Origin: Patellaria atrata CBS 101060
Taxonomy: Eukaryota
DNA length: 64,000 bases
NCBI GenBank assembly: GCA_010093705.1
Contig: MU006090.1
Location: forward strand, 1,081,817 to 1,145,816
Direction: 5' to 3'
Positions within the stretch are counted from its first letter, which is position 1, and each line of letters begins with the position of its first letter. A program made the translations under genes and the position numbers. Shown here piece after piece: positions 32,145-50,784 of this stretch. The notes below the pieces were generated by a model. The model did not search any database, was not told where the DNA came from, and was given only the letters and a program-made list of their open reading frames with translations.

Positions 32145-34634
32145 ATGACTGTAACGTACGACACGTCCTACCGTGGGTGGTCACAGGGCTCATCAGCTAT
32201 GACTTGCCTTGAGGACAAGTACGAGGTGCAGAAAGAGATCGGAGATGGAAGTTTTGGTAGCGTCGTTTTAGCACGCGTTCGAGGCGCTGGCGCTCACATC
32301 GCACGTAGAGGGACTATGGTATGTCACGCGTTTGAAAGGTTTTGATCAACTTCATCTGATTTTTCATGCAGGTCGCAATCAAGACGATGAAGAAATCGTT
32401 CGAATCATTCAATCATTGTCTTGAATTACGGGAAGTCATCTTTTTAAAAACTCTCCCTCCTCATCCTCATCTAGTACCAGCACTTGATATCTTCCTTGAT
32501 CCATTCAGCAAGAAACTCCACATTGCTATGGAGTACATGGACGGTAATCTTTACCAGCTTATGAAATCAAGGGAATACAAGCACTTGGACTCCGCAAGCG
32601 TAAAGAGTATCCTCTTTCAAATAATGTCTGGATTGGAACACATCCATGAACATAGCTTCTTCCATCGGGACATCAAACCTGAGAACATTCTCGTCTCTAC
32701 TTCGGCTCCACACGACTCATCTAACGCTTTCCGTCGGTACTCAGCTCTGGTCACGCCACCTTCTACGCCCCCGGTCTTTACGATCAAGATTGCAGATTTT
32801 GGACTGGCCCGTGAGACACATTCAAAGTTGGCTTATACAACCTATGTATCAACAAGATGGTATCGTGCCCCGGAGGTTCTATTACGAGCTGGCGAGTACT
32901 CAGCACCTGTAGATATATGGGCTGTAGGAGCAATGGCTGTAGAGATTGCAACGTTGAAGCCATTATTTCCCGGTGGGAACGAGGTAGATCAGGTCTGGAG
33001 AGTATGCGAAATAATGGGTAGTCCAGGGGGTTGGGTGAATAAGCACGGAAACCGAGTTGGGGGAGGAGAATGGAAAGACGGTGTACGTCTAGCGCAAAAG
33101 CTAGGCTTTGCATTCCCTAAGGTATTCTTTTTTTCAATCTGTCGTCGGAAGTCCCTGCTGATTATTCATTCAGATGGCCCCACACTCGATGGAAACCATT
33201 CTGCCTTCCCCAGAATGGCCGTCAAGTCTCGCAAACTTCGTCACGTGGTGTTTAATGTGGGATCCCAAGAACCGTCCGACCTCGACTCAGGCTTTGAACC
33301 ATGAATATTTTGCTGATGCTGTGGATCCCCTCCGTCCAAAAACTTCGTCATCACGGTTCCTTTCGCGGAAGCAGTCAGATCTTAGTGGCACTACTGCCCG
33401 AGACCCCAATGATTCGGTGCCAAGCCTCAGCTCGAAGACGTCTTCATGGTTTAGAAAATCACTCGTTGCTCGCGAGAGCGGCCCAGCTGTACCACAGCAC
33501 ACCGCCAACATCAGACCTGCATCGCCACGTCCAGCACCTATGCATTCTAATACTGACACTGCCGTAGCTAGCAAGGTTAGGCCTAGCGCCAGTAAGCGGG
33601 CTACGTGGGCAAACGGAGTACCATCAAATGCCGCACCCATGCCAATCTTACCATCAATAAGACCAGTTTCTCCACTATCAGATGCAGTAACTGCACAGGG
33701 AAACACGAGAGTAATTAATGGAGAAGAGAAGGCCGTTAAGAAGATTGGACGTCAACTATCTGTTCAATCACATGGAAATCATTATGCGGATGTACACAGA
33801 CAAGAGGCCGAAAGAGCGTTGAACGGTCATTCAGGTGTTGCTTCACCATCAAGTGGTCACAGAGAGAGTTTCTTCTCCCACTTACGGAAGCGTGCCAGAA
33901 GGCTATCTGGACGCTATCAAACGCCCATGTCACCTAACTCAGACGACATCGAAGCAAATGCGGGATGTGCACCATGGGTCAGCAGTAACAGGCAATCCAT
34001 GGTCGTCGACTCAGTTCCCGCTCCAATGCAGCAACACGCGAATTTTGCAGAACTTGACAAAGCTCTTCAGAATGTTCGCTACAGTCTCGACGCGTCCCAA
34101 GCTTCCTGCGTAAAGAATGTGTCTCGCGTAGCAAGTAACCCAGTATTGAAAAGACACCATTCCGTCCCAAACGGCCAAGAGAATGCTTCAGCCGATCCTT
34201 CACAGTCACCGGTTGCCGTTGGCGGACCCATTTCAAGTCGTACGAGGAGAGCCCTTCAAAAACAGTCTCATCCAAGTCATCGATACGAAACACCTGATGA
34301 GGAGGAGGAACTCCTCGATGAGGCTCTTACATCTGCCCATACGGCTGCAGCGCGACTAGACCGACAACTACAGCAGAAGTCAACTGGCCTCCCTACTCCA
34401 GCATCAGTCGTAGCTACGACATCTTATCTTACCCCATCACCATCTGCAAATCGTAACAGCGTCAACTTTGGTCAAGATCCCTATGCGACTCCTTCTAAAC
34501 CATTGGAGATCACCAAGACACGACCAAAGCAAGAAGACCACAACCCCAAGTGGCCCACACCACCCTATGACGAAAACGATTGGGCAACGGCTGCAGCAGC
34601 TAGCATATTCGCAGCGCAAGCAGGGTACAGATAG
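32145..34634 (+). CDS. IME2: Ime2/Crk1/ImeB-type (MAK/ICK family) Ser/Thr protein kinase, 3 exons
   Basis: IGDGSFGSV, VAIKTMKK, HRDIKPEN, DFGLAR, activation loop YTTYVSTRWYRAPE (TxY); long Ser/Pro-rich tail with WPTPPY. Confidence 0.93.
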
Positions 34635-36620: not shown

Positions 36621-38524
36621 TTAACCACCCTTGAATACGACGTTCAAAAGGTTCGGTCTATGCGCAATATGCCGGGTAATCAAGAAGAATATAACCATTA
36701 AAAAACAATAACAGAGCCATGCCCACCATCGGTTAGGTATCATTGACATGCTAAAAATACCGGTCACTAGAGAAAGAGGGAGGTATATCTATACGGAGCT
36801 CAAGGTTAGCTTTTTAAAAGGGTTGAGCATGCCTAGGAGTTCATACCACAGTCATTCTTGTCAGTGTCGCTATCTGGATGTTCTGCGCTGCTGCACTTCT
36901 ACCAAGTTCCCGCGTAATACCACTTTCCTTAAGGGTGGACGCGCTAACAATCCCATCCTTCAATCCATTGAAGAGATCGAATTTCTGGTGAAGGGACAAA
37001 TGCATAGATCGTAGATCGTCTACGTGACCTCGTACGTCCGAAATGTATTCCCGCCACGTTTCTTTATATTCGTCGCTACCACTTACCTCAAAACACGGAA
37101 GATCATTGGTTTCGAAATTCTCCCAGGCCGCGACGGTCCTTCGTATACAATCTCGGAATTTGCGAATGGTGGATATCGTGACGGTAAGTTCTCTGGTCCT
37201 TGTAAGGTGTTCGTCATCGAAGAATTCCACGATAGTGCTCTCTTCCTGTCATGCGCAGTTAGTTGGCTTTGGATAGGACCGGGACGTGTTGTTTACATAT
37301 GGAGCCATCCTTTCCTCGAAGACATTGATAAGTGCGCCCCATTCTCTTGTCGATTGCATCATACGCCTGGCGAACACCATGAGGTAATATTGACGCGGGT
37401 TCCAAATAGGGAATTCGACCCAGATAGAGCCACCACTTGCGGGATCTATACCACCGTCAATGTATGTTCTCTCGTCAGGCTCACTGCCATAGAAAGTATC
37501 AACGAAGCAATAAGAGGTCCACAGCCATTCATCCACCCCGGTCACCAGGAACGACGTCTGCGCTTCATGGTACATTTCATTTCGCTCATCTTCGTTTCGA
37601 GCAAGGGGTAGCGGCCTTGATTTTCGTAGGAGACCATTTCGAAAGCGTCTCCTGTCTTCGTTATGGGCCCCCCGGCGTAGAGCAAAATAAGGTATGTGAA
37701 ATTCCAGGGCGTATCTAGGAGACAGGCTGCTCTGGAGGTAATTAGTGTATGCATGGATTTTCAAGACGGCCCCTGAGGGCCACAAACTTCCATACCAGTG
37801 AGCTACGGAAGAGCGCTCTTGCCAGGAGATGTCGATGAAAAAAGCTTCTCAACGCTGGTGCCATAACATCAGGCGCTGTCGAGGCAATAGCGATCATACA
37901 TGTTGGAGTGACATTGGCAGTATAACTTGAACAGTCAGAGAAAACAAGGTGGGATTAGGTCTTCAGTGGCACACATATTTCTTTTCTCCGCTCCGTTGTC
38001 TTGTCTCTATCTCTGTTAGCCTCGTCCCAGTCAACGTGTTGATTTGCTTATACATTTTCACGCAGTTTCTGGAAAAAATCATGCATGTTGTATATCTCAT
38101 TGACCACATGTTCTCCAGGCGTTGGATAGTTCATATACCCTCGTGGACCTTCCGAGTCCCACGCCCTCGGCCATGAGTTTGAACCTTCTATGTCTTTACG
38201 GTCATTCATCATCGCAACATCATTGCCCGTGATTGTCGTTGGACTCCCAGTCTCGAGGTCTTCTAACTTAGCTAATCGCATGTATTCCCCCAAAGCAGCG
38301 TATTGGATCCTTAGATTCCCTTGGGGGCTGTCGGAGGGGTCCAACCGGGTACCTCGTGTTTTGAGGAATTCAAATACGAGAGCATCAGTCGTCCGAGGGT
38401 CAAACTTCAGTCTTTGTTCGTCTTGCTGTGAGTAGACATGTTGTGGCTGGCGTTTAATGAATTTCCTCTTCCATGTGGATGCTGGGTCGTGGAAATGCAC
38501 CCTCCCACCTGATCCTGACCACAT
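36621..38524 (-). CDS. Uncharacterised fungal protein with a CorA-like C-terminal two-helix membrane segment, about 6 exons
   Basis: Five GT-AG introns with CTRAY join the ORF fragments into one frame. YALEFHIPYFALRR, EAQTSFLVTGVDEWLWTSYCFVDT, IWNPRQYYL. Helical stalk followed by IYLPLSLVTGIFSMS and WAWLCYCFLMVIFFLIT. TAA at 36623-36621. Confidence 0.72.
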
Positions 38525-38916
38525 GTTGGAGAGGTTTTATAATCTATGTTATTTTATAACCATCCCGTATAATTTTCCATGAGATAAAGCTTCTTTATAG
38601 ACACTGTCAAGACCTAAACTTGCGACGAGAACCATATCAGGGCTTTTTGACTGGTGAAGATGTTCACGACACGCAAGGCTGAGAGCTGCCTTGTCAAACG
38701 AGAAGGATTATCCTGCAGGTAGCTTTTCGAGCTGCATGCACGCATCGGTTCGCCTTGGAGCATCGGCACATTAACATGCTTGTACCATAGAAACCTCTAC
38801 AACTGAAATTTTCTTTATTAGCCTTGCGAACCCTTAACATCTCACATTTAGTAACAATATCATTATCGTCTAGCGGGAAGGAGACATCATTCCTACTCGA
38901 GTTACAAGTTACAATA

Positions 38917-39466: not shown

Positions 39467-39969
39467 GACTTTCATGAACTGACTGATGATTCTCAAATAT
39501 CTCTGATTTTGGGACGCCTTTTAGGGGGGTTAAACGCTGTCTTTGCAGCTATTGTCACTTTTTACTATCATTAATATTGGGGGTCTCTAATCTTACGGTA
39601 GAGGATGCCAGTGTATCTAATGTAATACAATGCCTTTAGAGTACATCTACATCTCCACGTTTCGGGTATAGGGGCTCGTATGTTATTGATATAGGTTAGG
39701 ATAGTTTGATAGCATCAAGTGTACTTGTGAGATGCTTCAGGGTGAACCACAAGTGAGAACAGTGGAAAGTTTCATTTAGCCAGTCTGATGAGGAGAGAAT
39801 GTAACTGTATAAACTAAACTCATCGTCCCCTAGTCCTCCCATCTACACCACGCTTACAGTTAACCAATGCCAGCAAAGAAAGTTATTCGCAAACACTGAC
39901 CTTATCCAAACAATACTTTAACCCTATACATACAACCCAGAAAATCAACCAGCAGTGCACTTTTACATA

Positions 39970-42330
39970 TCACCTCCTTCTCTCTTCCCTCTTAAAAGTC
40001 TCGGCTGTCCAACCAAAAGTCCTCTCCAACCGCCGTCCCCAACGTCTCGCAATATAATAAGCAATCTTTCCTCCCGGATGGGGTTCATGTATTTGAATCG
40101 TTTTACGGCCCTCAATATCTCCTGTGCGCTCGAATGACCAAGCAGAACCCCAAAGCTTCTGTGTCTTGCATCCTGCAGATGCCATAGCATGGCGGAAATC
40201 AGAAAAGGGTATCTCGCCGGGTGGGCGGTCAGTGTTTGGGTTGTGGAAGAGCGTCTTGAAAATATTGAGATCACGAAGGGGAACAAAAATGACTTCAGGA
40301 GGGGATTCTGCTGCAGGTGAACCTTCGGGTTCGTCAGGATCTTGTTCCTTCTCCAATTGATCGTCAGCCGGGCCCCGGCTTTTACGTTTAATCTTTTCCT
40401 TTGGCCTATGAAAGGAAGGGCCACTGGTTTCGTAAGTAGGGAATTGGAAGGCTTGGGTTGTTGCAGGTATTGGAGCAGGTATACTGGCGTCGTGAAGACG
40501 TCGTGCATGTTGAATGTCGGCCTGTGTAACTCGTCTTAAACCGTAAGTTTCCGGATCTATTAGGCCAAGGCTAATATGTACACTATTATCGTCGTCCTCT
40601 GTGATGGTATGCTTATCGATGGTGTTCCAGAGGATATCCAGTTGTCTCTCTACCATGGCCATTTTGGTGAGATTCTCATAGGTTCGAGGCTTGTCGCAGG
40701 GGTAGTCCAATCTCTTGAAGAAGATTTCACCGACTTGTTGTAACAAGTTTCCCTCGAATACTTCTTCTGGTGCTCGTTCCATGTTCTTATCAAGCCATTC
40801 CTTATCAGCCAAAATCTTGCCCTTTGTCTCCATCCGTCGTACCCATGGTTGGAAAGCCCGCACTTGTCGTTCAATCTCGTAGAGCAGAGCTAGATCCATC
40901 AACATGTCTTCGATAAATGCTGTCGTAAACCGTCTCTGCTTAGGGTCATTCCGCAAGACATGAACCCAGTTGTTTAGAAGTACGGGTATGCTGATGGTAC
41001 TTAATTTGTTGGGGTCGACAAAGGCATGAAGTATCCACACGATTGGGTCATTCTTGTAATGCTTAATAGCATTGGTAGTCTTAACCGTTGGGTATGTCCG
41101 GCCACTGTCACCTTCGCTTTCCTCTTGGTACGCATAATTCTTACTAAGTGGGAAAGATGTACGTAAAGCAGTACCTATTTCATGGATTAAGGTAGCTGCA
41201 AAATAAGACAAAGCTTGTCGAAGTTCAAGCAAAGCTTCCTCCAATTGAAGATCCGCCCGGGTTGCCACAGAAGGAGATCTGTTTTGCTCTAGAATTACCT
41301 CAATGCAGCCCAAGACGAAGGTCCAGACGCCAAACGAATCATATGCATTCAGGAACAATTTTGCGATACGAGTGGTGACCATGTCCGTTTTTCCCTTCTG
41401 GCCAGTCTTTTCGAGCAGATCTCTGGTATTTCCCCATCCATGTTCACCCTGCACCCGGATACAGTCAGCAAAGTAGCTTGGATCCTCTCGAAGAGTCCAA
41501 ATATGGTCCTCTGCGGCAGATTTCCTTGCATCAACAAGTATCCGCAACTTTTCAAAGTCGAGTGCTTTTGGTGTGCGGTAGGGAGCATCTTGTATCATGC
41601 TTTCGAGCGAATCGAAATAGCCATCGTTTGTGAGGACCTTGGTTTCCGGGATAATAGCAGGAACAGCATTGTACAGATCCATTATGGTGTAGTCGTGCAT
41701 GATGTCGCAGACACAGCGTCGAAGAAACTCGAGAGTCCGTGCCTGCATAAACAGCACCTCCATTCCAACCCCAACATTAACAGCTAAGGTGAATAAATCA
41801 CCCTCACATTCGGAAGCGTTTATAATCCTTCCATAATTAGCGAGATCCGTCTGACCCACAAGCAACATACCAAAGTCAGAAGGATAACGGTTACGGAGTA
41901 TATTTGCTAATGGATTGGAAGATGCTGTGTATATGTTGTCAGGAGCAAAGATGTGAGGATCGGTGCATCCACGAGAATTCAATAGAACTAAAAATGCGTT
42001 TCCATAAGAGAGATATTCAACGTTGAGATGTGGCCACAAGAACTCGAATATCCCCCATTGACCGGGCGGTTCTCTATCTAAAAGGGTTGTGAAACGATTC
42101 CGGTAGTTTCTAGGTATGCACTGTGAGGCGCTCAAAAGTTCTATCCTTTTCGGGTGACTCTTTTTATTCCATCGTTTCTGAATGGTAAGCCCGTGTCGAT
42201 CGAGGACGGCGCGTAGGGATTTTATGGTGGCGTAAATCGACTCAGTAAGCTGAACAACATACGATTTCGCAAATTTTATGTTCGTCTCCTGGGTGGCGCT
42301 AAATATTTCGGTCTCAGTAGTAAGATCCAT
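39970..42330 (-). CDS. Intronless 786-aa protein with a C-terminal HicA-like (dsRBD-fold RNase toxin-like) domain
   Basis: Single long ORF. Motifs WPHLNVEYL...LLNSRG and AEDHIWTLREDPSYF; basic KEKIKRKSRG; terminal IPFSDFRHAMASAG...GSAWSF...TIQIHEPHP...RRLERTFGW. The ORF is secure; the domain call is an inference. Confidence 0.8.
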   Translation of the reverse strand: MDLTTETEIFSATQETNIKFAKSYVVQLTESIYATIKSLRAVLDRHGLTIQKRWNKKSHPKRIELLSASQCIPRNYRNRFTTLLDREPPGQWGIFEFLWPHLNVEYLSYGNAFLVLLNSRGCTDPHIFAPDNIYTASSNPLANILRNRYPSDFGMLLVGQTDLANYGRIINASECEGDLFTLAVNVGVGMEVLFMQARTLEFLRRCVCDIMHDYTIMDLYNAVPAIIPETKVLTNDGYFDSLESMIQDAPYRTPKALDFEKLRILVDARKSAAEDHIWTLREDPSYFADCIRVQGEHGWGNTRDLLEKTGQKGKTDMVTTRIAKLFLNAYDSFGVWTFVLGCIEVILEQNRSPSVATRADLQLEEALLELRQALSYFAATLIHEIGTALRTSFPLSKNYAYQEESEGDSGRTYPTVKTTNAIKHYKNDPIVWILHAFVDPNKLSTISIPVLLNNWVHVLRNDPKQRRFTTAFIEDMLMDLALLYEIERQVRAFQPWVRRMETKGKILADKEWLDKNMERAPEEVFEGNLLQQVGEIFFKRLDYPCDKPRTYENLTKMAMVERQLDILWNTIDKHTITEDDDNSVHISLGLIDPETYGLRRVTQADIQHARRLHDASIPAPIPATTQAFQFPTYETSGPSFHRPKEKIKRKSRGPADDQLEKEQDPDEPEGSPAAESPPEVIFVPLRDLNIFKTLFHNPNTDRPPGEIPFSDFRHAMASAGCKTQKLWGSAWSFERTGDIEGRKTIQIHEPHPGGKIAYYIARRWGRRLERTFGWTAETFKREERRR

Positions 42331-42827: not shown

Positions 42828-44122
42828 ATGAACCGATCTATTGAGCAAGCACTTACAAGCCTTATACCAACTTACTCCAGTCCACTACCGTCCGAATTAC
42901 TGAACTTGGCGCTTTCTATCCTTGCGCAATCGCGAACAAAAGCTAGCAGCTTAAGACCCGAGGAGGAGATCGCACGTGGTTATGCCTGTGCACATATTGC
43001 ATGCGAGAGGTAGATATGTTATCACAGTCTTCCATTCGGTTCCTCATCTGACCAATTCTTTCCAGTCTGAAACAGGTGCTCAACCTTCCTACCATCAAGC
43101 CCCACCCTCCCGTACCACCGCGAACGTATAGGAAGGTTTACAATTATTTCATAACTGCGCTTCCGGTGCGCGTTTCGAGGACAACCAGAGCAGTAGCACA
43201 GAATAAGAAAGTAGAGCATGCAATCTCGAAGTCGGCAGTGGCCAGATCGAAACCTACTCCAACTGGTACACCCAAGACGCCAACCTCCAAGGGGACACTA
43301 TCAAGGGTGACACCAAGGAAGCGAGCAGCGCCTGACAACAATGAAGGAAGGGATGCTCCACCCTGGGTCATGCCAGCGATTCGACAACTTTGTAAAGCTT
43401 TCGATGCTCCTCTCGCGGTACCCCACGTCTTTGCGGGTATCAGCTCCATCCTGAAAATAGTAAATACCTCAAAATCATTCTCCACAATCAGCTCGAATCC
43501 AACACCGACACGAACACGGACGCGCACATCTACACAAAGGCAATCTCGTGAAGCCATTGACATTGCAGAAGAACGCATACCGGGCTTACTCGTAGTCATC
43601 TTCTTATATACATATTCGAGACTATCCGGCATACACGTTACCACCGAAACGTACCTATCGCAACGGAACAAAGGTATCAATGTATTGCTGGGTCTCAAAG
43701 ATATACCACAGCGAGATCAGGGAACAATAATAGAAGATGTAGAGCAGCTACTGCGGGAGGCGCAAAATGGTTGGTTAGAACTAGATTGGTACACCAATAT
43801 TATGGAAGGTAGCGGGTTTCAGGAGGGAATGCACGATTCACAAGATGGGATTGATGTGGATGAGGAAGAGGATTCCGACATCGAAGACATGGCGGGGAAG
43901 CGTAGAAGGAATATGAAAAAGACTACAAATAATGGCATGTTAAAGAGCGGACTGGGGACAATGATGCAGGATAAGATTGATTATCTGAGTGAGGAGAGGA
44001 AAAGAGACTACATTGAGTGGAAAAAAGGGATTCTAGCACGGATGGAACGGATTGCGAATGGAGAAGAGGATGCAGAGACGGGTTATGGGAGAGATGGTAG
44101 CGGAGTCGACCAGCCATCATGA
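42828..44122 (+). CDS. ORC6: Origin recognition complex subunit 6, 2 exons
   Basis: LRPEEEIARGYACAHIACERL, PPVPPRTYRKVY; C-terminal GLGTMMQDKIDYLSEERKRDYIEWKKGIL. Confidence 0.9.
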
Positions 44123-44686
44123 GGAATCTGGACCTTGAAAAACCTATTCTTTACGAAGTTTCTGATTACATCAGCTGTCCTTACTTATGATCTACTCAAT
44201 AATACCCGTTACTATATGTCTTCCAGCGGCTCCTCGACGTGGTTCGGAAATTCTGGCCAGCTATGATGGAAAATCTCCTTGATATTAGGTACAGTACCGT
44301 ACTCACCCAAGCTCTTCTTCTAGCTTAGAAGAAATATTTTGCGTAGCAGAATTAGCACAATCATCCGATAAGCAGTAGGTCCAAAGTTCATATGTCTGCC
44401 TAGAGGTATTCTGGCTTTAGGTATGAATATCTAAAGTGTTCAGCTGAGATGGTCCCTCGATTCCCTAACCATGACCACCTGAGCCACAGTAAGCAAGGAT
44501 CAGTCGGCAACCGTTCGACTTGGGAACCCCGCCATGGATGTCACGGCTGAAAGAGCTCCGCCGCCCTGTTCAATCTCCTATGAGTCTTTCATGCGCACAT
44601 GCAAATTTACTTAATCTTCACTCTTCAATCTTTTCTTTCTCTCTTCCGCTCGTCTGATCACGAATCAACTCGGTCTTTCTCCCAAC

Positions 44687-46950
44687 ATGCGCTCAGTCAC
44701 CTTCATAATCTTCGTGAGCATAGCACTTCTACTATTGCTCCCCGCCCCCGCATCTGCTTTTGGCGCTGGTAACATCGCATCCATCTCCAAGGTCGAAGGC
44801 CGAAACTGGCGTCATGGTGATATCGAGGATATGCTCAAGACTGTCGCCTGTCTCAAGGGTCATAAATGGTCTTCGATGATGATCAAGCGCGTATACTTTG
44901 GGAACTGGTTGCGTGATTACTCCCAAGCTGTTGACGTAGGCACATTGAAAGGCGTCCAGAAAGATACTATCAGGATACTAGTATGGGTTCTTGCTTTCAT
45001 GTCGTTCGGGTATGCTACGGCCGAATTCGAGGTTACTGAGGAGAGACTGGGTGTATACAGACCGGAGGAACACATTGATAACCCTAAGGATTACGCCGAT
45101 AACACCGATGCAAGACAGTATGATAATAGATTAAGAGAGCCCATTCACCCCGAGGAGCTGGCAATAGACCCATACACAGGTACAGAACCTATTCTACCGT
45201 CTATCATCGTCTCACCCATTATTCTATAGGCATGAAAAACTATATCGCAAACGAAAGAGGTTTCTGGGCGACCAGCGCTGGCTATATCAGGTTTAGCTTC
45301 TCGAGGGCCATCCATTTTGGTAGAATGTACACCCATGGAAGGCATAGTGGGCGAGAGGAAGATCTCTGCGAAGCTCTCAGATGCCTCGGTCAAGGGCTTC
45401 ACTGCGTAGAAGACTTTGGAGCGCACACGAACTATACGGAACTCGCTCTGCGAGAGCTAGGATTTGACAACGTCTTTCCTCACACCGGTACCGCGACGCA
45501 GATGAATATCAGGGGAAAATACGTGTTCCCCCTTGTCACTGGTACGTTCGGCGGTGTAGACTTCCTGCATAGCGTGCTCGGCGAAGCTACAGACCATTTC
45601 ACGCAATCCGAGATCGACGAGATGAATATCGCATTGGGTGATGCTGCTGGTGGGTCCGGTGGGTCAGGCGGAAAGAGATCCGTCGGAGGCTCCTCGGGAT
45701 CGCAGTGTGATGTTCTCTGCGGATTGCTCGATAAAATTCCCGGTAGCGGGGGTCTTGTTCAAGAGGCGCTGAATCTCCAAAAGCTGTCGAACGAGCAAAA
45801 AGCTCAGAATGAATCGTATAGTGGAACTCGCGGCTACGACGACGGATACAGCAGCTCACGGGCTTCCGGTGCACCACCCCCAGCATTTTCTGGCCCTCCA
45901 GGCTCACAAGGCGGACCGCCAGGCCCAGGTATTCCAGGTATGAATCCCAATTTTGACCCACAGTCCGTGGTCCCCAAGATCTACCCGATTCTTGAGTTCC
46001 GCGACAAAGTCGTCCGCTCCATCTCCGCCATCGTCTCACGGATCCCCGGCCTCGAGTCACTCATCGAAAAGATCACCGAACGTGTGACGCTGTTCGTGCT
46101 ATCCCTTCTCGCACCTTTCATCCAACCAATCATCAAAGCGGCCTCTGATCAACTCAAGCAAGGCTCCTCCGCCGTCGTTAACGCAAGCGGAAAACACCAG
46201 TACGAGCCCTGGACCGATCCGCACTGCACGGATCCAACTCACTCTTTACTATCTAAAGACCACTTCTCCAACGTCCTAAATGAGCCGGCTGGCCAAGTCG
46301 CCACTGTCATCTTACAGTACATCGCCCCCCGCATCATTTTCGCGATGGACAACCCTGACATCGCCGTCGACCAGGTTCTCGACGACGTCGTGCGCGTCTT
46401 CCATCATCCTGCCCTGCGAGATCCACGGCTCGAGCTCCATAGACAGATGTTCGACGTAGTGGAACGTTGGACCCGCAAACTCCCCGACCGCGGCCGAAAC
46501 CTCAACAACGTCCTTTCATCTGAGAGCGTCCGCGCGGGGAAGAACCATTCCGGGCTCGCGCCCGAAGGGAAGCATGGCCACCACCATCACCACCATGGTC
46601 CCACCTCTCACAGCAAGGATTCGCCTTTTGATATGATCAGTCGCCGACGAGGCCTCGATCCCGAACCAGCTGGGGGGGACTATCGTCGGCCGTCTCCAGG
46701 TGGTTATGCTCGGGAAGGATACGATCAGGGATATAGTGGGCAATCGCCTTTTCCGCAGGGCGGAGTGAGTCAGCAGGATCCGTATACATATCCCACGGCG
46801 TATCAGCAGGGTTACGAGGAGCCGTACCATCAGGCCCCGCCACCACAGGCGCCGTATTCGCCGCAGCCACCATATCCCCAGGAGGGTGGATATGGGCAAG
46901 GGAGCTACGGGGGTGGGCATGATCACTATGGAGGGCAAGGGAGGTGGTAG
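44687..46950 (+). CDS. het-c: HET-C family (heterokaryon incompatibility C-like) protein with signal peptide and Gly/Pro/Tyr/Gln-rich tail, 2 exons
   Basis: Signal peptide then AFGAGNIASISKVEG, WRHGDIED, VYFGNWLRDYSQ, EEHIDNPKDY, GLHCVEDFGAHTNY, DPTHSLLSKDHFSN; intron at about 45180-45229. Orthology (het-c versus paralog) not resolved. Confidence 0.92.
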
Positions 46951-47226
46951 AAGGTTTGAAGATACCCAGTTGTATAGGTTCGGGGGCTTTCTGCGTGTTG
47001 TGTGTGTTGTACGGATTGAGATTTAGGGGCTGGGGTCTTGATTGTTGAAACAAGATTTGCGAGAAGGGGTGGCTGCAGTGTCTATTCTGCAATTTCTTTA
47101 TTTGACCATTCATCTACAGATTCACAGATTCTAGCGAGAAGAGCTCCAGTAACATCGATGTAATACAATGCCTCACGGCTAGTACAAGCACACTAAAATC
47201 TCCAAGACAGAGCCCTTCTCCCTTTA

Positions 47227-48465
47227 TCACCACTTCCCCCTCCTCCCATCCTCACCTGAAAAGTCCCGCCCCATCCTTTCCCTCTCGACCCTTGCATCGA
47301 ATTCCCGCTGCGCCTCCGCCTTCGCAAGCTGTCTGTCCTCTTCGCTCGTAGAAAACGCAAAACTATCCCCCGACGTCGCGCCTTCGGTGGTCTCGCTGCC
47401 GGCGCGTCGTTGCGCCCAGGAGCCCCTGTTCTGAGGTGAGGGTGAGGGTGGATTGGGGGCTTCGTTGCGAGGAATTGCGCTAGATGGGGCTTCGCCGCGA
47501 CGGATGCGGTCCCAAGCCGAGCCACCGGAAGAGGTAGACTCACGGCGGACGGGGGACGCGTCATCGGAGGAGTAAGAGGTATCGGGTCGCGATGGTGTCG
47601 AGAAGCCGGATGAGGGGCCGGTTAGATCTTCAAAATCGGAGGAGCGAGAGTCAGAGCTGGGGTAATCGGCCGCTTGCGGGGACATGTCGTCGTCGTCTGT
47701 ACTGCTCCTTCTCGAGCTCCACGTCGAAAGCTGTTGCTGCCTTTGTCTCTGCTGCCGCTGCTGTTGCTTGGCTTGATCCGGGCCTATTCTGCTCGCCTCA
47801 CTCTCCCACCTCTCCTGCACCTCCCGCGACACCGGTAATCCCTCCCTCTGAAGCTCCCCCCTAGCCTTCCGAATAACCTGATTCCGCAACACCTCATTGA
47901 ACTCCTTCATCTCAGGATTCGTCGCCATCATCGCCGCGCTCGTGCTCGCCGCATAGCTACTCGCCACCGCCGCCCCGAGGACCCAAAAGACCGTGCCATA
48001 CACCTGCGCCCGGATCCCGTGCAAAGCGTACCGCGCCATGTTTCCCTTCAGCGGGCCGAAGCTGTCGGGGTTGAACCTCTGCAGATCCGGCTTCCAGAAC
48101 AGAAACGCGAACGTTTCGCGGGTCTGGTACGAGCGCAAGACGCCCCAGGCGGCCCCGAGCGCCATGCCGTAGCTGCTGAACTGGCTCATGCGGCAGTAGT
48201 GGAATGCGAGGGTTTGCGCTTCCACGGGGCGCAAAGGTCGCGAGAGAAGCTTGGAGGCATGCTCGAGGTTCGTGTCGATCGAGTGCGTTTGGGCGGCGCG
48301 GGTGAAGCCCGCGAGGGGGCCAAGAATGGGGAAGGGTTTTGGGAGGCCGGAGAGATCGTAGAGTTTGTTACTGGAGGATGACGGAGAGGAGTAGGGGTCA
48401 AGATCGGAAGAGGGACTGGAGTCGGAGGAGAAGGAATCGGGGTTGGAGGTGTCTTCGAGGACCAT
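47227..48465 (-). CDS. Hypothetical fungal membrane protein, intronless
   Basis: 412-aa ORF with GC-rich codons, two hydrophobic segments, a Ser-rich linker, and AWDRIRR and AQREFDARVERER near the C-terminus. Confidence 0.75.
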   Translation of the reverse strand: MVLEDTSNPDSFSSDSSPSSDLDPYSSPSSSSNKLYDLSGLPKPFPILGPLAGFTRAAQTHSIDTNLEHASKLLSRPLRPVEAQTLAFHYCRMSQFSSYGMALGAAWGVLRSYQTRETFAFLFWKPDLQRFNPDSFGPLKGNMARYALHGIRAQVYGTVFWVLGAAVASSYAASTSAAMMATNPEMKEFNEVLRNQVIRKARGELQREGLPVSREVQERWESEASRIGPDQAKQQQRQQRQRQQQLSTWSSRRSSTDDDDMSPQAADYPSSDSRSSDFEDLTGPSSGFSTPSRPDTSYSSDDASPVRRESTSSGGSAWDRIRRGEAPSSAIPRNEAPNPPSPSPQNRGSWAQRRAGSETTEGATSGDSFAFSTSEEDRQLAKAEAQREFDARVERERMGRDFSGEDGRRGKW

Positions 48466-49025
48466 CGTTGCGGTGGTGAAGCCGAAGGGAGGGGGTATTA
48501 GGAAGAGTAGGATTAATAGGGTTTATGAAAAGATCATTTGGGAGTATGTTTCCAAGGAAATTTATCAATGGTATAAATCATAAAAGAGGTGTTAGAACTT
48601 TTTCAATTGATTGTATGGCGCTAGATATTTGATGTGAGGTTCGAATTGAAGCTTTCTAGACGGGACGTTCCCAGGCGAGGAAGACGTTGGCCCAAGCTCC
48701 ACTCTCTACGGCGCCCTTGGCGCTAAGGTACACCTTAAAGGTGCACGAGGGTATTCTTACGGAGATGTTTACTACAAGTATATCGTAATTGGAACTTCTC
48801 GGTTGCTGTGTCGGTACTGTACATTCACTCACACAAGCTAGAGCTTGGAGATTCTTTTAAGGGGCTTAGAGTTGATGGGTCTCTGCACTATACAGCTTGA
48901 AGTCAATAGTACAGTCTGCGTCATTGCGTACAGAGGAACGAGAGACGTTTTATACGACCAAACTCACAGAAGCCGAGAGCATCACGATAAAGAAATAGGC
49001 TGTAAGTTATACTGGAACTTCAATT

Positions 49026-50784
49026 TCATTTTTTTGGTCTTTTAGGTGCGACTGAGGTTACTACCTTATTCAGATCATGCGAGCCCAAATCCACGTGCTT
49101 ATATCTGACTGAACAAGTGAGATTCTGTAATTCCCGCGGGATCTTCTTTTGGGGTATTTTGATTCTCATCGTAGGGAGAGCAATGACTCTCTCCCGTCCG
49201 CCCTCATCCTTAGCAACAATAGCGGGAAGAGTAAAGCGACCCTTAGCAGGGCAGAACTCTCCCAGAATGGCCTTTACAGTTTTCCGCTGCTTGGGATTAA
49301 AACATGCGTAGAATCTCTCCGCGTCTTCTTTTCGAAATCTTCGGATCTTCACTTCAAGCTGTTCGGATACATTATGCAAAAGTATCCAAAATCTTCCATC
49401 CCAGAGGTGGTATGACCGTTGCAAAAGGTCAGAATGAGTAAGTTCGGGAGCTTCTCCGTTCTCCATGGGAATGCGAGCCGTAAGTCGCCACGTATTTTCA
49501 CCAAGTGGAGTGAATTGTACACCGCTTACAAGGAAAATTTGACTTTGTTGAGTATGGTTCTTCTCAGTTGGCTCGAGAAGATCCTGCGGTAAGAATCGCG
49601 GTACAGCACTGACAAGATTTGGAAGAAGTATGGATTCCGTAGGCGTGATGAGACGGACTAGTCTTCTGAGAAGTGCAGCTGTCACTTTGAACCACCCACG
49701 ATAGTGGTGCTCGCCGTCCTTACCAGTTGTGCTGCTAATCATTCGAAACACATCGGCCGGAACTTCTAGATTCAACGTCCCAGAAGAGATGTTAAGCGAA
49801 ATTTTACATCCATTGAAGCATTCCTGGGCCTTTTCTTCTACTCTCTGTTCCATCTCTGCAGCTCTTTTAGAGATTTCGATCAACGATCTTTTCCTGAGGG
49901 CGACCGGGAGCAGTTCAGAACTTTCGGCCTCGGTCCTAGCTTTACTTGGAGAGAGAATAAATCGGACTGCATTTCGTAATGTCAAGGTAGGGTCTGCATT
50001 TGTTGCATCCTCAACCCAGGGCATTTTTGCAGCCCTACAAGTATCTTGAAGTTCGATCTTCGAATATGCTAACAAAGGTCTCAGTATCTGCACTCCCTTA
50101 TCCGCAATGCCAAATTCATGTCCCAATGAGGAGATCGTTGGGATCTGGTGGACCATGGGTACTCCATTACACTCCGGAATATCTGATATCTCTTGCATAG
50201 CTCGTAGGCCAAATCCAAATCTCCTGTTCAAGAGCCGCGAGAAGACTGTCTCTGCTTGGTCATCGTTATGGTGTGCTAGAAGGAGTGACTTTATGCCATG
50301 GTTTGCGCAAGCTCTTCCCAACACATCATATCTCGCTTTACGTGCTTCTTGTTCGAATGTACGGGAAGAGGTAGGCTCGTAACCATTTGGCCATTGTATT
50401 GTTAAGACCTCGGCAGGTAGACCTGCTTCCTATTTAAAATTCGAATCATAAATGCTCTTCACAGCTCGAACTTACCAATTCCCTGCAATTCCTTCGCAAC
50501 CCACTGAGCTTCCAAATGGCTGTCTTTACGGGCTCGATGGTCAACAATGAACGGCGTGTAAGTGGATCGGTAGAGCGGATCTTGACTACACAAAAGAGCC
50601 AAAGCCATAGAATCAACTCCACCACTTATAGCAAGCCCTTGATTCGAGTATGAGCTCGCGTTCGTTCATTGCGCAGAGAGACAGATATAGTACCTATTTT
50701 CGCAGGCCATGGTGCCTTTGAAACCGTCAGAAGGGTACGTAGCTTTTGAACAAAAGCCTCAGGACTAATTGCTCTAGCCGACAT
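49026..50784 (-). CDS. tilS: PP-loop ATPase, tRNA(Ile)-lysidine synthase (TilS/MesJ)-like, 3 exons
   Basis: Spliced GLAISGGVDSMALA, IVDHRAR, ARKARY, AHHNDDQAET, ILRPLL, WVEDATN...RNAVR. Confidence 0.85.

Follow-up and report, generated by a model that had tools for sequence, protein, structure and literature searches.

HicA is regarded as a toxin of prokaryotes and phages. The present study concerns a HicA-like domain that forms the tail of a 786-residue protein of the fungus Patellaria atrata CBS 101060; its gene lies on contig MU006090.1 (assembly GCA_010093705.1) within a stretch of 64,000 nucleotides (positions 1,081,817 to 1,145,816, forward strand), which is called the window below and from whose first letter positions are counted. 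In the available portions of two papers (PMC11594946, PMC6159526), the only catalytic residue established for HicA is the His that follows a Gly-Ser turn at the start of strand beta2; the catalytic His is given in the first of them as His24 in B. pseudomallei, His28 in Y. pestis, His36 in S. pneumoniae and His23 in E. coli (PMC11594946). Canonical structures are those from B. pseudomallei (6G26 and 4C26), Y. pestis (HicA3, 4P78), S. pneumoniae (5YRZ), E. coli (6HPB) and T. thermophilus (TTHA1913, 1WHZ). The accessible part of the survey by Gerdes (2024; PMC10865869) distinguishes 14 genetic contexts of HicA, all of them prokaryotic, among which classes 11-13 are HicA-HicB fusions and class 14 is an SMC domain with a C-terminal HicA. 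Like the fused HicAs described there, the Patellaria domain is part of a larger polypeptide, with the C-terminal location of class 14, but its partner is neither HicB-like nor SMC-like and its host is a eukaryote. On balance, we read this tail as a true HicA-fold domain, homologous to an N-extended, HRPHP-type clade of bacterial HicAs, fused to a conserved helical body and possibly acting as a ribonuclease (RNase).

The gene (39970-42330, minus strand) is made of one open reading frame (ORF), which runs uninterrupted from ATG to stop over 786 codons. Since alignments with full-length relatives cover 71-96% of the protein, no intron is required, in agreement with the intronless gene of the preliminary description of this DNA. 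The latter had assigned a HicA-like RNase toxin domain to positions 39970-40290, which encode residues 681-786 and the stop, and the strings it quoted (IFKTLF, EIPFSDFRHAMASAGCKTQKLWGSAWSF and TIQIHEPHPGGKIAYYIARRWGRRLERTFGW) were all found in the translation, in the order given. A model of the full-length protein (predicted local distance difference test score, pLDDT, 76.5; predicted template modelling score, pTM, 0.78) shows residues 1-615 as a helical body and residues 618-672 as a disordered linker, which leads to the HicA-like tail. The gene occurs as a single copy within the window. An overlapping minus-strand ORF in another frame (39963-40508, 181 residues) was rejected as unsupported. 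The parts of the gene are as follows.

39970..42330, minus strand: whole gene, 786 codons plus stop (TGA at 39970-39972), a single ORF
40486..42330, minus strand: N-terminal body (residues 1-615), made mostly of helices and conserved across the fungal family
40294..40485, minus strand: linker, residues 616-679, Pro-rich and predicted to be disordered, its basic block preceding an acidic one (from the full-length model and composition)
40372..40410, minus strand: basic motif HRPKEKIKRKSRG, residues 641-653, family consensus KxKxKTRG
39973..40293, minus strand: HicA-like domain, residues 680-786, made of a strand, alpha0, alpha1-beta1-beta2-beta3-alpha2 and a short final strand
40249..40290, minus strand: N-terminal extension of the domain, residues 681-694, a strand and alpha0, RxLxIFxTLF followed by P
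40141..40149, minus strand: Gly728-Ser729-Ala730, beta1-beta2 turn, placed by the hmmsearch and HHalign register to HicAs with Gly-Ser-His (GSH-type)
40075..40089, minus strand: His748-Glu749-Pro750-His751-Pro752 (HEPHP), end of beta3, candidate active site
40015..40059, minus strand: helix alpha2, residues 758-772, strongly basic, consensus ARRxGRRLxR

A relationship between the fungal tail and bacterial HicAs was observed at the level of profile comparison. Bacterial references were taken from five genomes, in which 34 matches to the Pfam family HicA_toxin (PF07927) were listed, 31 of them over its curated gathering cut-off of 27 bits; 29 were translated, after exclusion of four matches that lacked a locus and of one locus that scored below the cut-off. 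When a profile of 150 fungal domains was aligned to these 29 Pfam-verified HicAs with HHalign, a probability of 91.6% was obtained (E 8e-7, 61 columns), domain positions 37-106 falling on positions 4-64 of 65. The corresponding values for 28 members of the N-extended clade presented below were 95.1% and E 3.4e-8, over 75 columns. Control templates remained at no more than 3.8% when reversed and 2.6% when column-shuffled (three times 30 templates), and the top shuffled score was 15.9 versus 36-46 for the real comparisons. The register was constant in all comparisons, with GS placed on GS and PHP on PHP. HicA_toxin was also the sole Pfam family to recur in short relatives of the tail (11 of 48 at E ≤ 1, best 8.9e-5; the next family reached 3 of 48), and it was matched at E ≤ 0.01 by 3 of 65 relatives, over profile positions 1-45 to 1-54 of 58. 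Single-sequence searches of the tail against Pfam, NCBIfam and PDB returned chance matches to cathepsin (E ≥ 0.4) and other noise, and phmmer with one relative (P0045) found no HicA in PDB. The fungal profile was further run against 401 genomes sampled from one phylum, of which nine were matched at E ≤ 0.1, within chance expectation; among the six matches translated, one was a real HicA (L114, E 0.006), and it belongs to the N-extended clade.

This clade was encountered among the 29 reference HicAs, three of which (L108, L105 and L091) displayed an N-terminal extension, a GS turn followed by Ala or Arg, and an H-x-P-H-P motif. Their HicA_toxin scores were 40.1, 33.2 and 32.4 bits, respectively, and a HicB gene (PF05534) directly followed each of them. 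With a profile made of four sequences (E ≤ 1e-5), the clade was detected in 53 of the 401 sampled genomes; 28 of the 30 loci returned were used, one being cut by a contig end and another carrying an internal stop. Its members (L108, L105, L091, L114 and L122-L151) encode proteins of about 84 residues. In the 28 retained sequences, GS was followed by Arg (23), Gly (3) or Ala (2), HRPHP was present in 27, and an ORF matching the hidden Markov model (HMM) of HicB was located downstream in every case, mostly with a 1-nucleotide overlap. On sequence grounds, the clade is one of genuine hicAB toxins, and it looks like an uncharacterised catalytic variant of HicA. The succession W-x-D, G, GS-x-x-x-F and HxPHP, which the preliminary description had given as typical of a HicA subgroup, does exist in the form of this populous bacterial clade.

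The fungal domain and the N-extended clade share several traits. Positions 15-98 of the former align to positions 1-78 of the 84 residues of the latter; both possess an extra N-terminal helix (TLxxIFxxP in bacteria) followed by I/L-x-W-x-D ahead of alpha1, a Gly-Ser turn without a subsequent His, and F-H-x-P-H-P at the end of beta3. Yet, the bacterial proteins are free-standing, with about 84 residues, and all 28 genes are translationally coupled to a hicB that follows them, whereas the fungal domain terminates a protein of about 800 residues and is devoid of HicB. They further differ by HEPHP in fungi instead of HRPHP, by Val or Ala after GS where bacteria mostly display Arg (23/28), and by a far more basic alpha2 and an extra short C-terminal strand on the fungal side. 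In a tree of 35 fungal, 28 N-extended and 26 canonical sequences (97 columns, quick method), each ensemble occupied one side of a branch, with Shimodaira-Hasegawa-like approximate likelihood ratio supports (SH-aLRT) of 87, 92 and 92, respectively, the fungal sequences grouping apart rather than nested among the sampled bacterial ones. As this tree is unrooted, it is silent on the fungal sister group, on the donor and on the date.

At the structural level, an AlphaFold2 model of the tail, built on 48 sequences (the tail and 47 short relatives), reached a pLDDT of 92.9 and a pTM of 0.83. It is composed, in domain numbering, of strand 13-15, helices 17-26 and 41-50, strands 53-57, 62-67 and 76-80, helix 90-104 and strand 111-113. 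Helix 41-50 to helix 90-104 make up an alpha-beta-beta-beta-alpha core, which bears out the fold related to double-stranded RNA-binding domains (dsRBD) that had been proposed earlier. When 48,161 solved chains were scanned exhaustively with VIA-align, HicA-family chains occupied ranks 1-4 and 10. Taking profiles and model together, the tail is very probably homologous to HicA; derivation from the N-extended HRPHP-type clade, or an ancestry shared with it, is a likely origin as judged from the alignments. By analogy with the dsRBD-like fold, helix alpha2 is the likely nucleic-acid-binding face of the modelled domain.

Residue conservation was counted over the 150 aligned fungal domains, with the numbering of the 786-residue protein. 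The N-terminal part, which falls on positions 1-30 of the N-extended bacterial proteins, displays the consensus R-A-L-K-V-F-x-T-L-F-x-x-P ... P-G-E-x-x-W-x-D-F, including F695 (149 of 150), G705 (148), F712 (149) and a column at position 709 where Trp is found in 148 domains and Phe in the Patellaria atrata protein. The turn region is equally well kept (G728 and S729 in 148 domains each, W731 in 147, F733 in 148). HEPHP is nearly invariant, with 149 occurrences of H748, 147 of E749, 150 of P750, 150 of H751 and 143 of P752; K755 follows with 139. In alpha2, residues A761, R762, R763, G765, R766, R767, L768 and R770 were each found in at least 129 domains.

As in canonical HicAs, the beta1-beta2 turn is a conserved Gly(-Ser) and beta3 is followed by P-H-P or P-x-H-P: G728-S729 align with the canonical Gly-Ser in both hmmsearch and HHalign, and HEPHP falls on HRPHP in the bacterial clade and on PHP in the canonical proteins. 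In contrast, the canonical catalytic His, as located in the portions of the papers cited above, is without counterpart in the fungal domain and falls on Ala730. The hairpin register of the model (beta2 at 62-67, beta3 at 76-80) suggests that His748 should stand across from the start of beta2, adjoining the canonical site. Both the fungal family and the bacterial clade are devoid of the canonical His but keep H-x-P-H-P invariant, which points to an uncharacterised catalytic variant. The tail would bind RNA through its basic alpha2 and its dsRBD-like surface, and RNA would be cut by the invariant His748 and/or His751 of HEPHP.

The distribution of the tail was examined with its last 118 residues as a query against 1.84 billion representative proteins. 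Matches numbered 1210 at E ≤ 1e-3, of which 644 passed E ≤ 1e-10 and two, the query protein among them, passed E ≤ 1e-30. In a set made of the 150 best hits and three further relatives, most matches ended no more than 25 residues from the C-terminus; larger distances were due to weak secondary matches and to a handful of proteins, P0006 and P0016 among them. A word-indexed search for the tail in proteins of 64-207 residues found none. The body was then searched in the 153 tail-matching proteins (phmmer with residues 1-660) and was present in 119 of them: 58 of 58 with at least 700 residues (query included), 55 of 60 with 300-699 residues and 6 of 35 below 300 residues. Several of the short relatives, encoded on contigs of some 0.9-1.2 kb, are likely to be fragments. 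Since all 58 long relatives share the body, the tail is not promiscuous, and body, linker and tail compose a fixed architecture of about 800 residues. The fusion to a large eukaryote-specific body, which had been put forward for this single protein, is a property common to its long relatives.

Identity to relatives was 39-56% in the tail and 20-29% over whole proteins. Named members were recorded in Trichoderma virens, Teloschistes flavicans, Salinomyces thailandicus, Diaporthe ilicicola, Fusarium lateritium and Gryganskiella cystojenkinii, i.e. in Sordariomycetes, Dothideomycetes and Lecanoromycetes together with one species of Mortierellomycota, and every one of them is annotated as a hypothetical protein. 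The Gryganskiella protein (P0006, 1751 residues) extends the family beyond Dikarya. It contains tandem bodies (92-660 and 937-1530) and tails (770-866 and 1642-1747), which reflects either a real tandem fusion or neighbouring genes joined by the gene caller.

The body was mostly helical in the full-length model, as anticipated. It resembled only generic helical bundles when this model was submitted to Foldseek and VIA, no Pfam family recurred in more than 2 of 51 full-length relatives, and a profile of the full-length family matched nothing among PDB sequences below E 0.28. Its best-conserved motif is AAEDHxWxLREDPxYFA (around residues 272-288), followed by EH(R) up to about residue 298. Residues D283 and P284 are invariant and D275, R281, E282, Y286 and H297 are kept in at least 90% of the 51 relatives; the charged and His residues of this motif could form a catalytic or binding site. 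The ESM Atlas clusters nearest to the body by language-model features were fungal clusters named 'Ipa protein' and an Ascomycota cluster (0.88 and 0.77), scores below 0.9 being leads and cluster names automatic labels.

The linker displayed pLDDT values below 50 at residues 618-647 and 649-672. Its basic cluster, HRPKEKIKRKSRG (residues 641-653), precedes an acidic one, DDQLEKEQDPDEPEG, so that the basic/acidic linker noted previously between body and tail is indeed present. K648 and K650 are kept in at least 90% of the 51 full-length relatives. The KxKxKTRG motif is conserved although the surrounding linker is disordered and poorly conserved; it might, speculatively, be a nuclear-targeting signal or a site of protease processing between body and tail.

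The preliminary description had seen no HicB-like partner, and our searches concur. An HMM of 31 HicB sequences detected nothing in the six-frame translation of the window (best E 3.9) or in the 153 fungal relatives (best E 1.5), comparison of the full-length fungal family with HicB in HHalign gave a probability of 0.5%, and the flanking ORFs are without a Pfam family. Because HicB is missing, the body is the most likely regulator, and it would act on the tail in cis. The prokaryotic HicA fusions offer a precedent for such control of a toxin domain; the analogy makes it conceivable here, at rather long odds. Among fusions, one E. coli-type HicA frame (L095, genome G002) was seen to run into HicB-like sequence in an open frame of 238 residues, and may be either a member of the fused HicA-HicB class of Gerdes or a sequencing frameshift.

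Genes surrounding the HicA-like gene are the following.

32360-34631, plus strand: protein kinase, in two frames (likely an intron)
37252-37848, minus strand: ORF without Pfam family
38051-38536, minus strand: ORF without Pfam family
43052-44119, plus strand: ORF without Pfam family
44615-46947, plus strand: Het-C (heterokaryon incompatibility) homologue, PF07217, E 2e-92 and 2e-175
47230-48522, minus strand: ORF without Pfam family
49029-50429, minus strand: PP-loop ATPase (ATP_bind_3)

These neighbours are ordinary fungal genes, and no sign of an operon-like partner or of a mobile element was seen in the window. The Het-C homologue is split across two overlapping frames, probably by an intron. 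It diverges from the HicA-like gene, with its 5' end some 2.3 kb upstream of the latter's start. Het-C homologues are common in filamentous ascomycetes, and for this reason no link is drawn to this neighbour. The G+C content peaks at 0.578 in positions 46001-48000, compared with 0.44-0.52 elsewhere in the window; the peak covers the 3' portion of Het-C together with the ORF at 47230-48522.

A number of results weigh against the reading of the tail as a HicA-type RNase. The Pfam search that had been suggested as a check was negative: HicA_toxin matched neither the 786-residue protein nor its tail, even at E ≤ 10. The 27-bit cut-off was reached by none of the listed relatives (best 22.3 bits; E. 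coli HicA itself scores merely 29.4 bits), and HicA_toxin was found at E ≤ 1 in just 1 of 51 full-length relatives. Against PDB sequences, profile HMMs of the fungal domain matched 0 chains and the profile of the N-extended clade gave 0 hits, i.e. no solved structure; no paper on the bacterial HRPHP-type clade was found in the literature searched, which covers few subscription journals. HHalign similarity was weak with the 26 canonical GSH-type HicAs alone (29.6%, E 5.7e-4) and amounted to 0.2% with the narrow E. coli HicA subfamily. In the structural comparison, Foldseek found no match of the tail at E ≤ 1e-3 in PDB or BFVD; the best HicA, 6g26_F, came at PDB rank 2 (E 0.23, TM score 0.66 on the target), and a phage 'HICA protein' was matched at E 0.29. 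Lastly, His occupies the catalytic column in at most one of the 150 fungal domains. Such modest fold scores and unpassed curated thresholds, with the KA1 domain of Chk1 as the first PDB match of Foldseek (E 0.18), might suggest a likeness to HicA that is convergent or fortuitous, the tail being another small alpha/beta domain, for instance KA1-like or frataxin-like. This explanation is largely refuted, and has very little probability left, given an independent profile comparison at 95% in which no shuffled or reversed control exceeded 3.8%, the constant register of GS and PHP, and an N-terminal extension that is common to the bacterial clade. It is just as improbable that the ORF is no functional gene, but the decaying remnant of a transferred or mobile sequence. 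All named relatives are hypothetical proteins, as would suit such a remnant; yet the 786-codon frame is unbroken, the surrounding genes are ordinary chromosomal ones, and motifs along the whole length are kept across fungal classes at 20-29% identity, which implies long purifying selection.

The alternative that deserves more weight, unlikely as we hold it to be, is a HicA-derived tail without catalysis, serving as an RNA- or protein-binding module that targets or regulates a functional body. The canonical His column is occupied by Val (89), Ala (51), Ile (5), Ser (3) or Gly (1) in 149 of the 150 domains, so that the defining catalytic feature of canonical HicA is lacking; the basic alpha2 (ARRxGRRLxR) fits binding as well as catalysis, and a large conserved body that is always present is what would be expected of a functional core. 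On the other hand, H748, E749, P750 and H751 are kept in 147-150 of 150 domains, beyond the usual conservation of a binding surface. Moreover, the bacterial sister clade, which also lacks the His after GS, retains HRPHP (27/28) and HicB (28/28), and this argues that its members are active toxins with a different catalytic arrangement. A relocated active site is therefore tentatively favoured over a purely binding role, as far as conservation patterns can tell, and the tail may be an active RNase, at somewhat less than even chances. Of the RNase toxin originally proposed, the HicA-fold homologue of a bacterial HicA has stood, while the catalytic His column (Ala in this protein) and the lack of a Pfam match speak against the rest.

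The HicA call itself is not wholly new, since the PF07927 label is already borne by part of the family (26% of the members of the Ascomycota cluster in ESM Atlas). No functional study of fungal 'Ipa protein' was found, the literature matches concerning Shigella Ipa or unrelated topics, and no paper was found on fungal or eukaryotic HicA or on the HRPHP/HEPHP motif in a search that covers few subscription journals and no supplements; matches for HicA in Ascomycota were discarded, being the HiCanu assembler or a reference-list entry. What is new is the fixed fungal architecture, the specific bacterial sister clade, and the loss of the canonical His shared by both together with an invariant H-x-P-H-P.

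A toxin module, including its clade-specific extra helix, is thus fixed at the end of a large fungal family (at least 644 representative clusters at E ≤ 1e-10), and a HEPHP active site, if true, would be a catalytic arrangement hitherto undescribed for HicA. It may even be imagined, though this is improbable, that the family is a eukaryotic single-chain counterpart of toxin-antitoxin or abortive-infection systems, in which the body restrains an RNase tail, senses a trigger and releases it. In such a scheme, the fast-diverging body would sense a mycovirus, non-self cytoplasm after hyphal fusion, or stress; the tail would be freed, perhaps by cleavage at KxKxKTRG in the disordered linker, and would cut RNA with its HEPHP site, arresting or killing the cell. 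Bacterial-type effector domains are a recurring theme in fungal defence and incompatibility. Should the RNase activity prove true, this family would be a candidate for fungal cell-autonomous defence or incompatibility.

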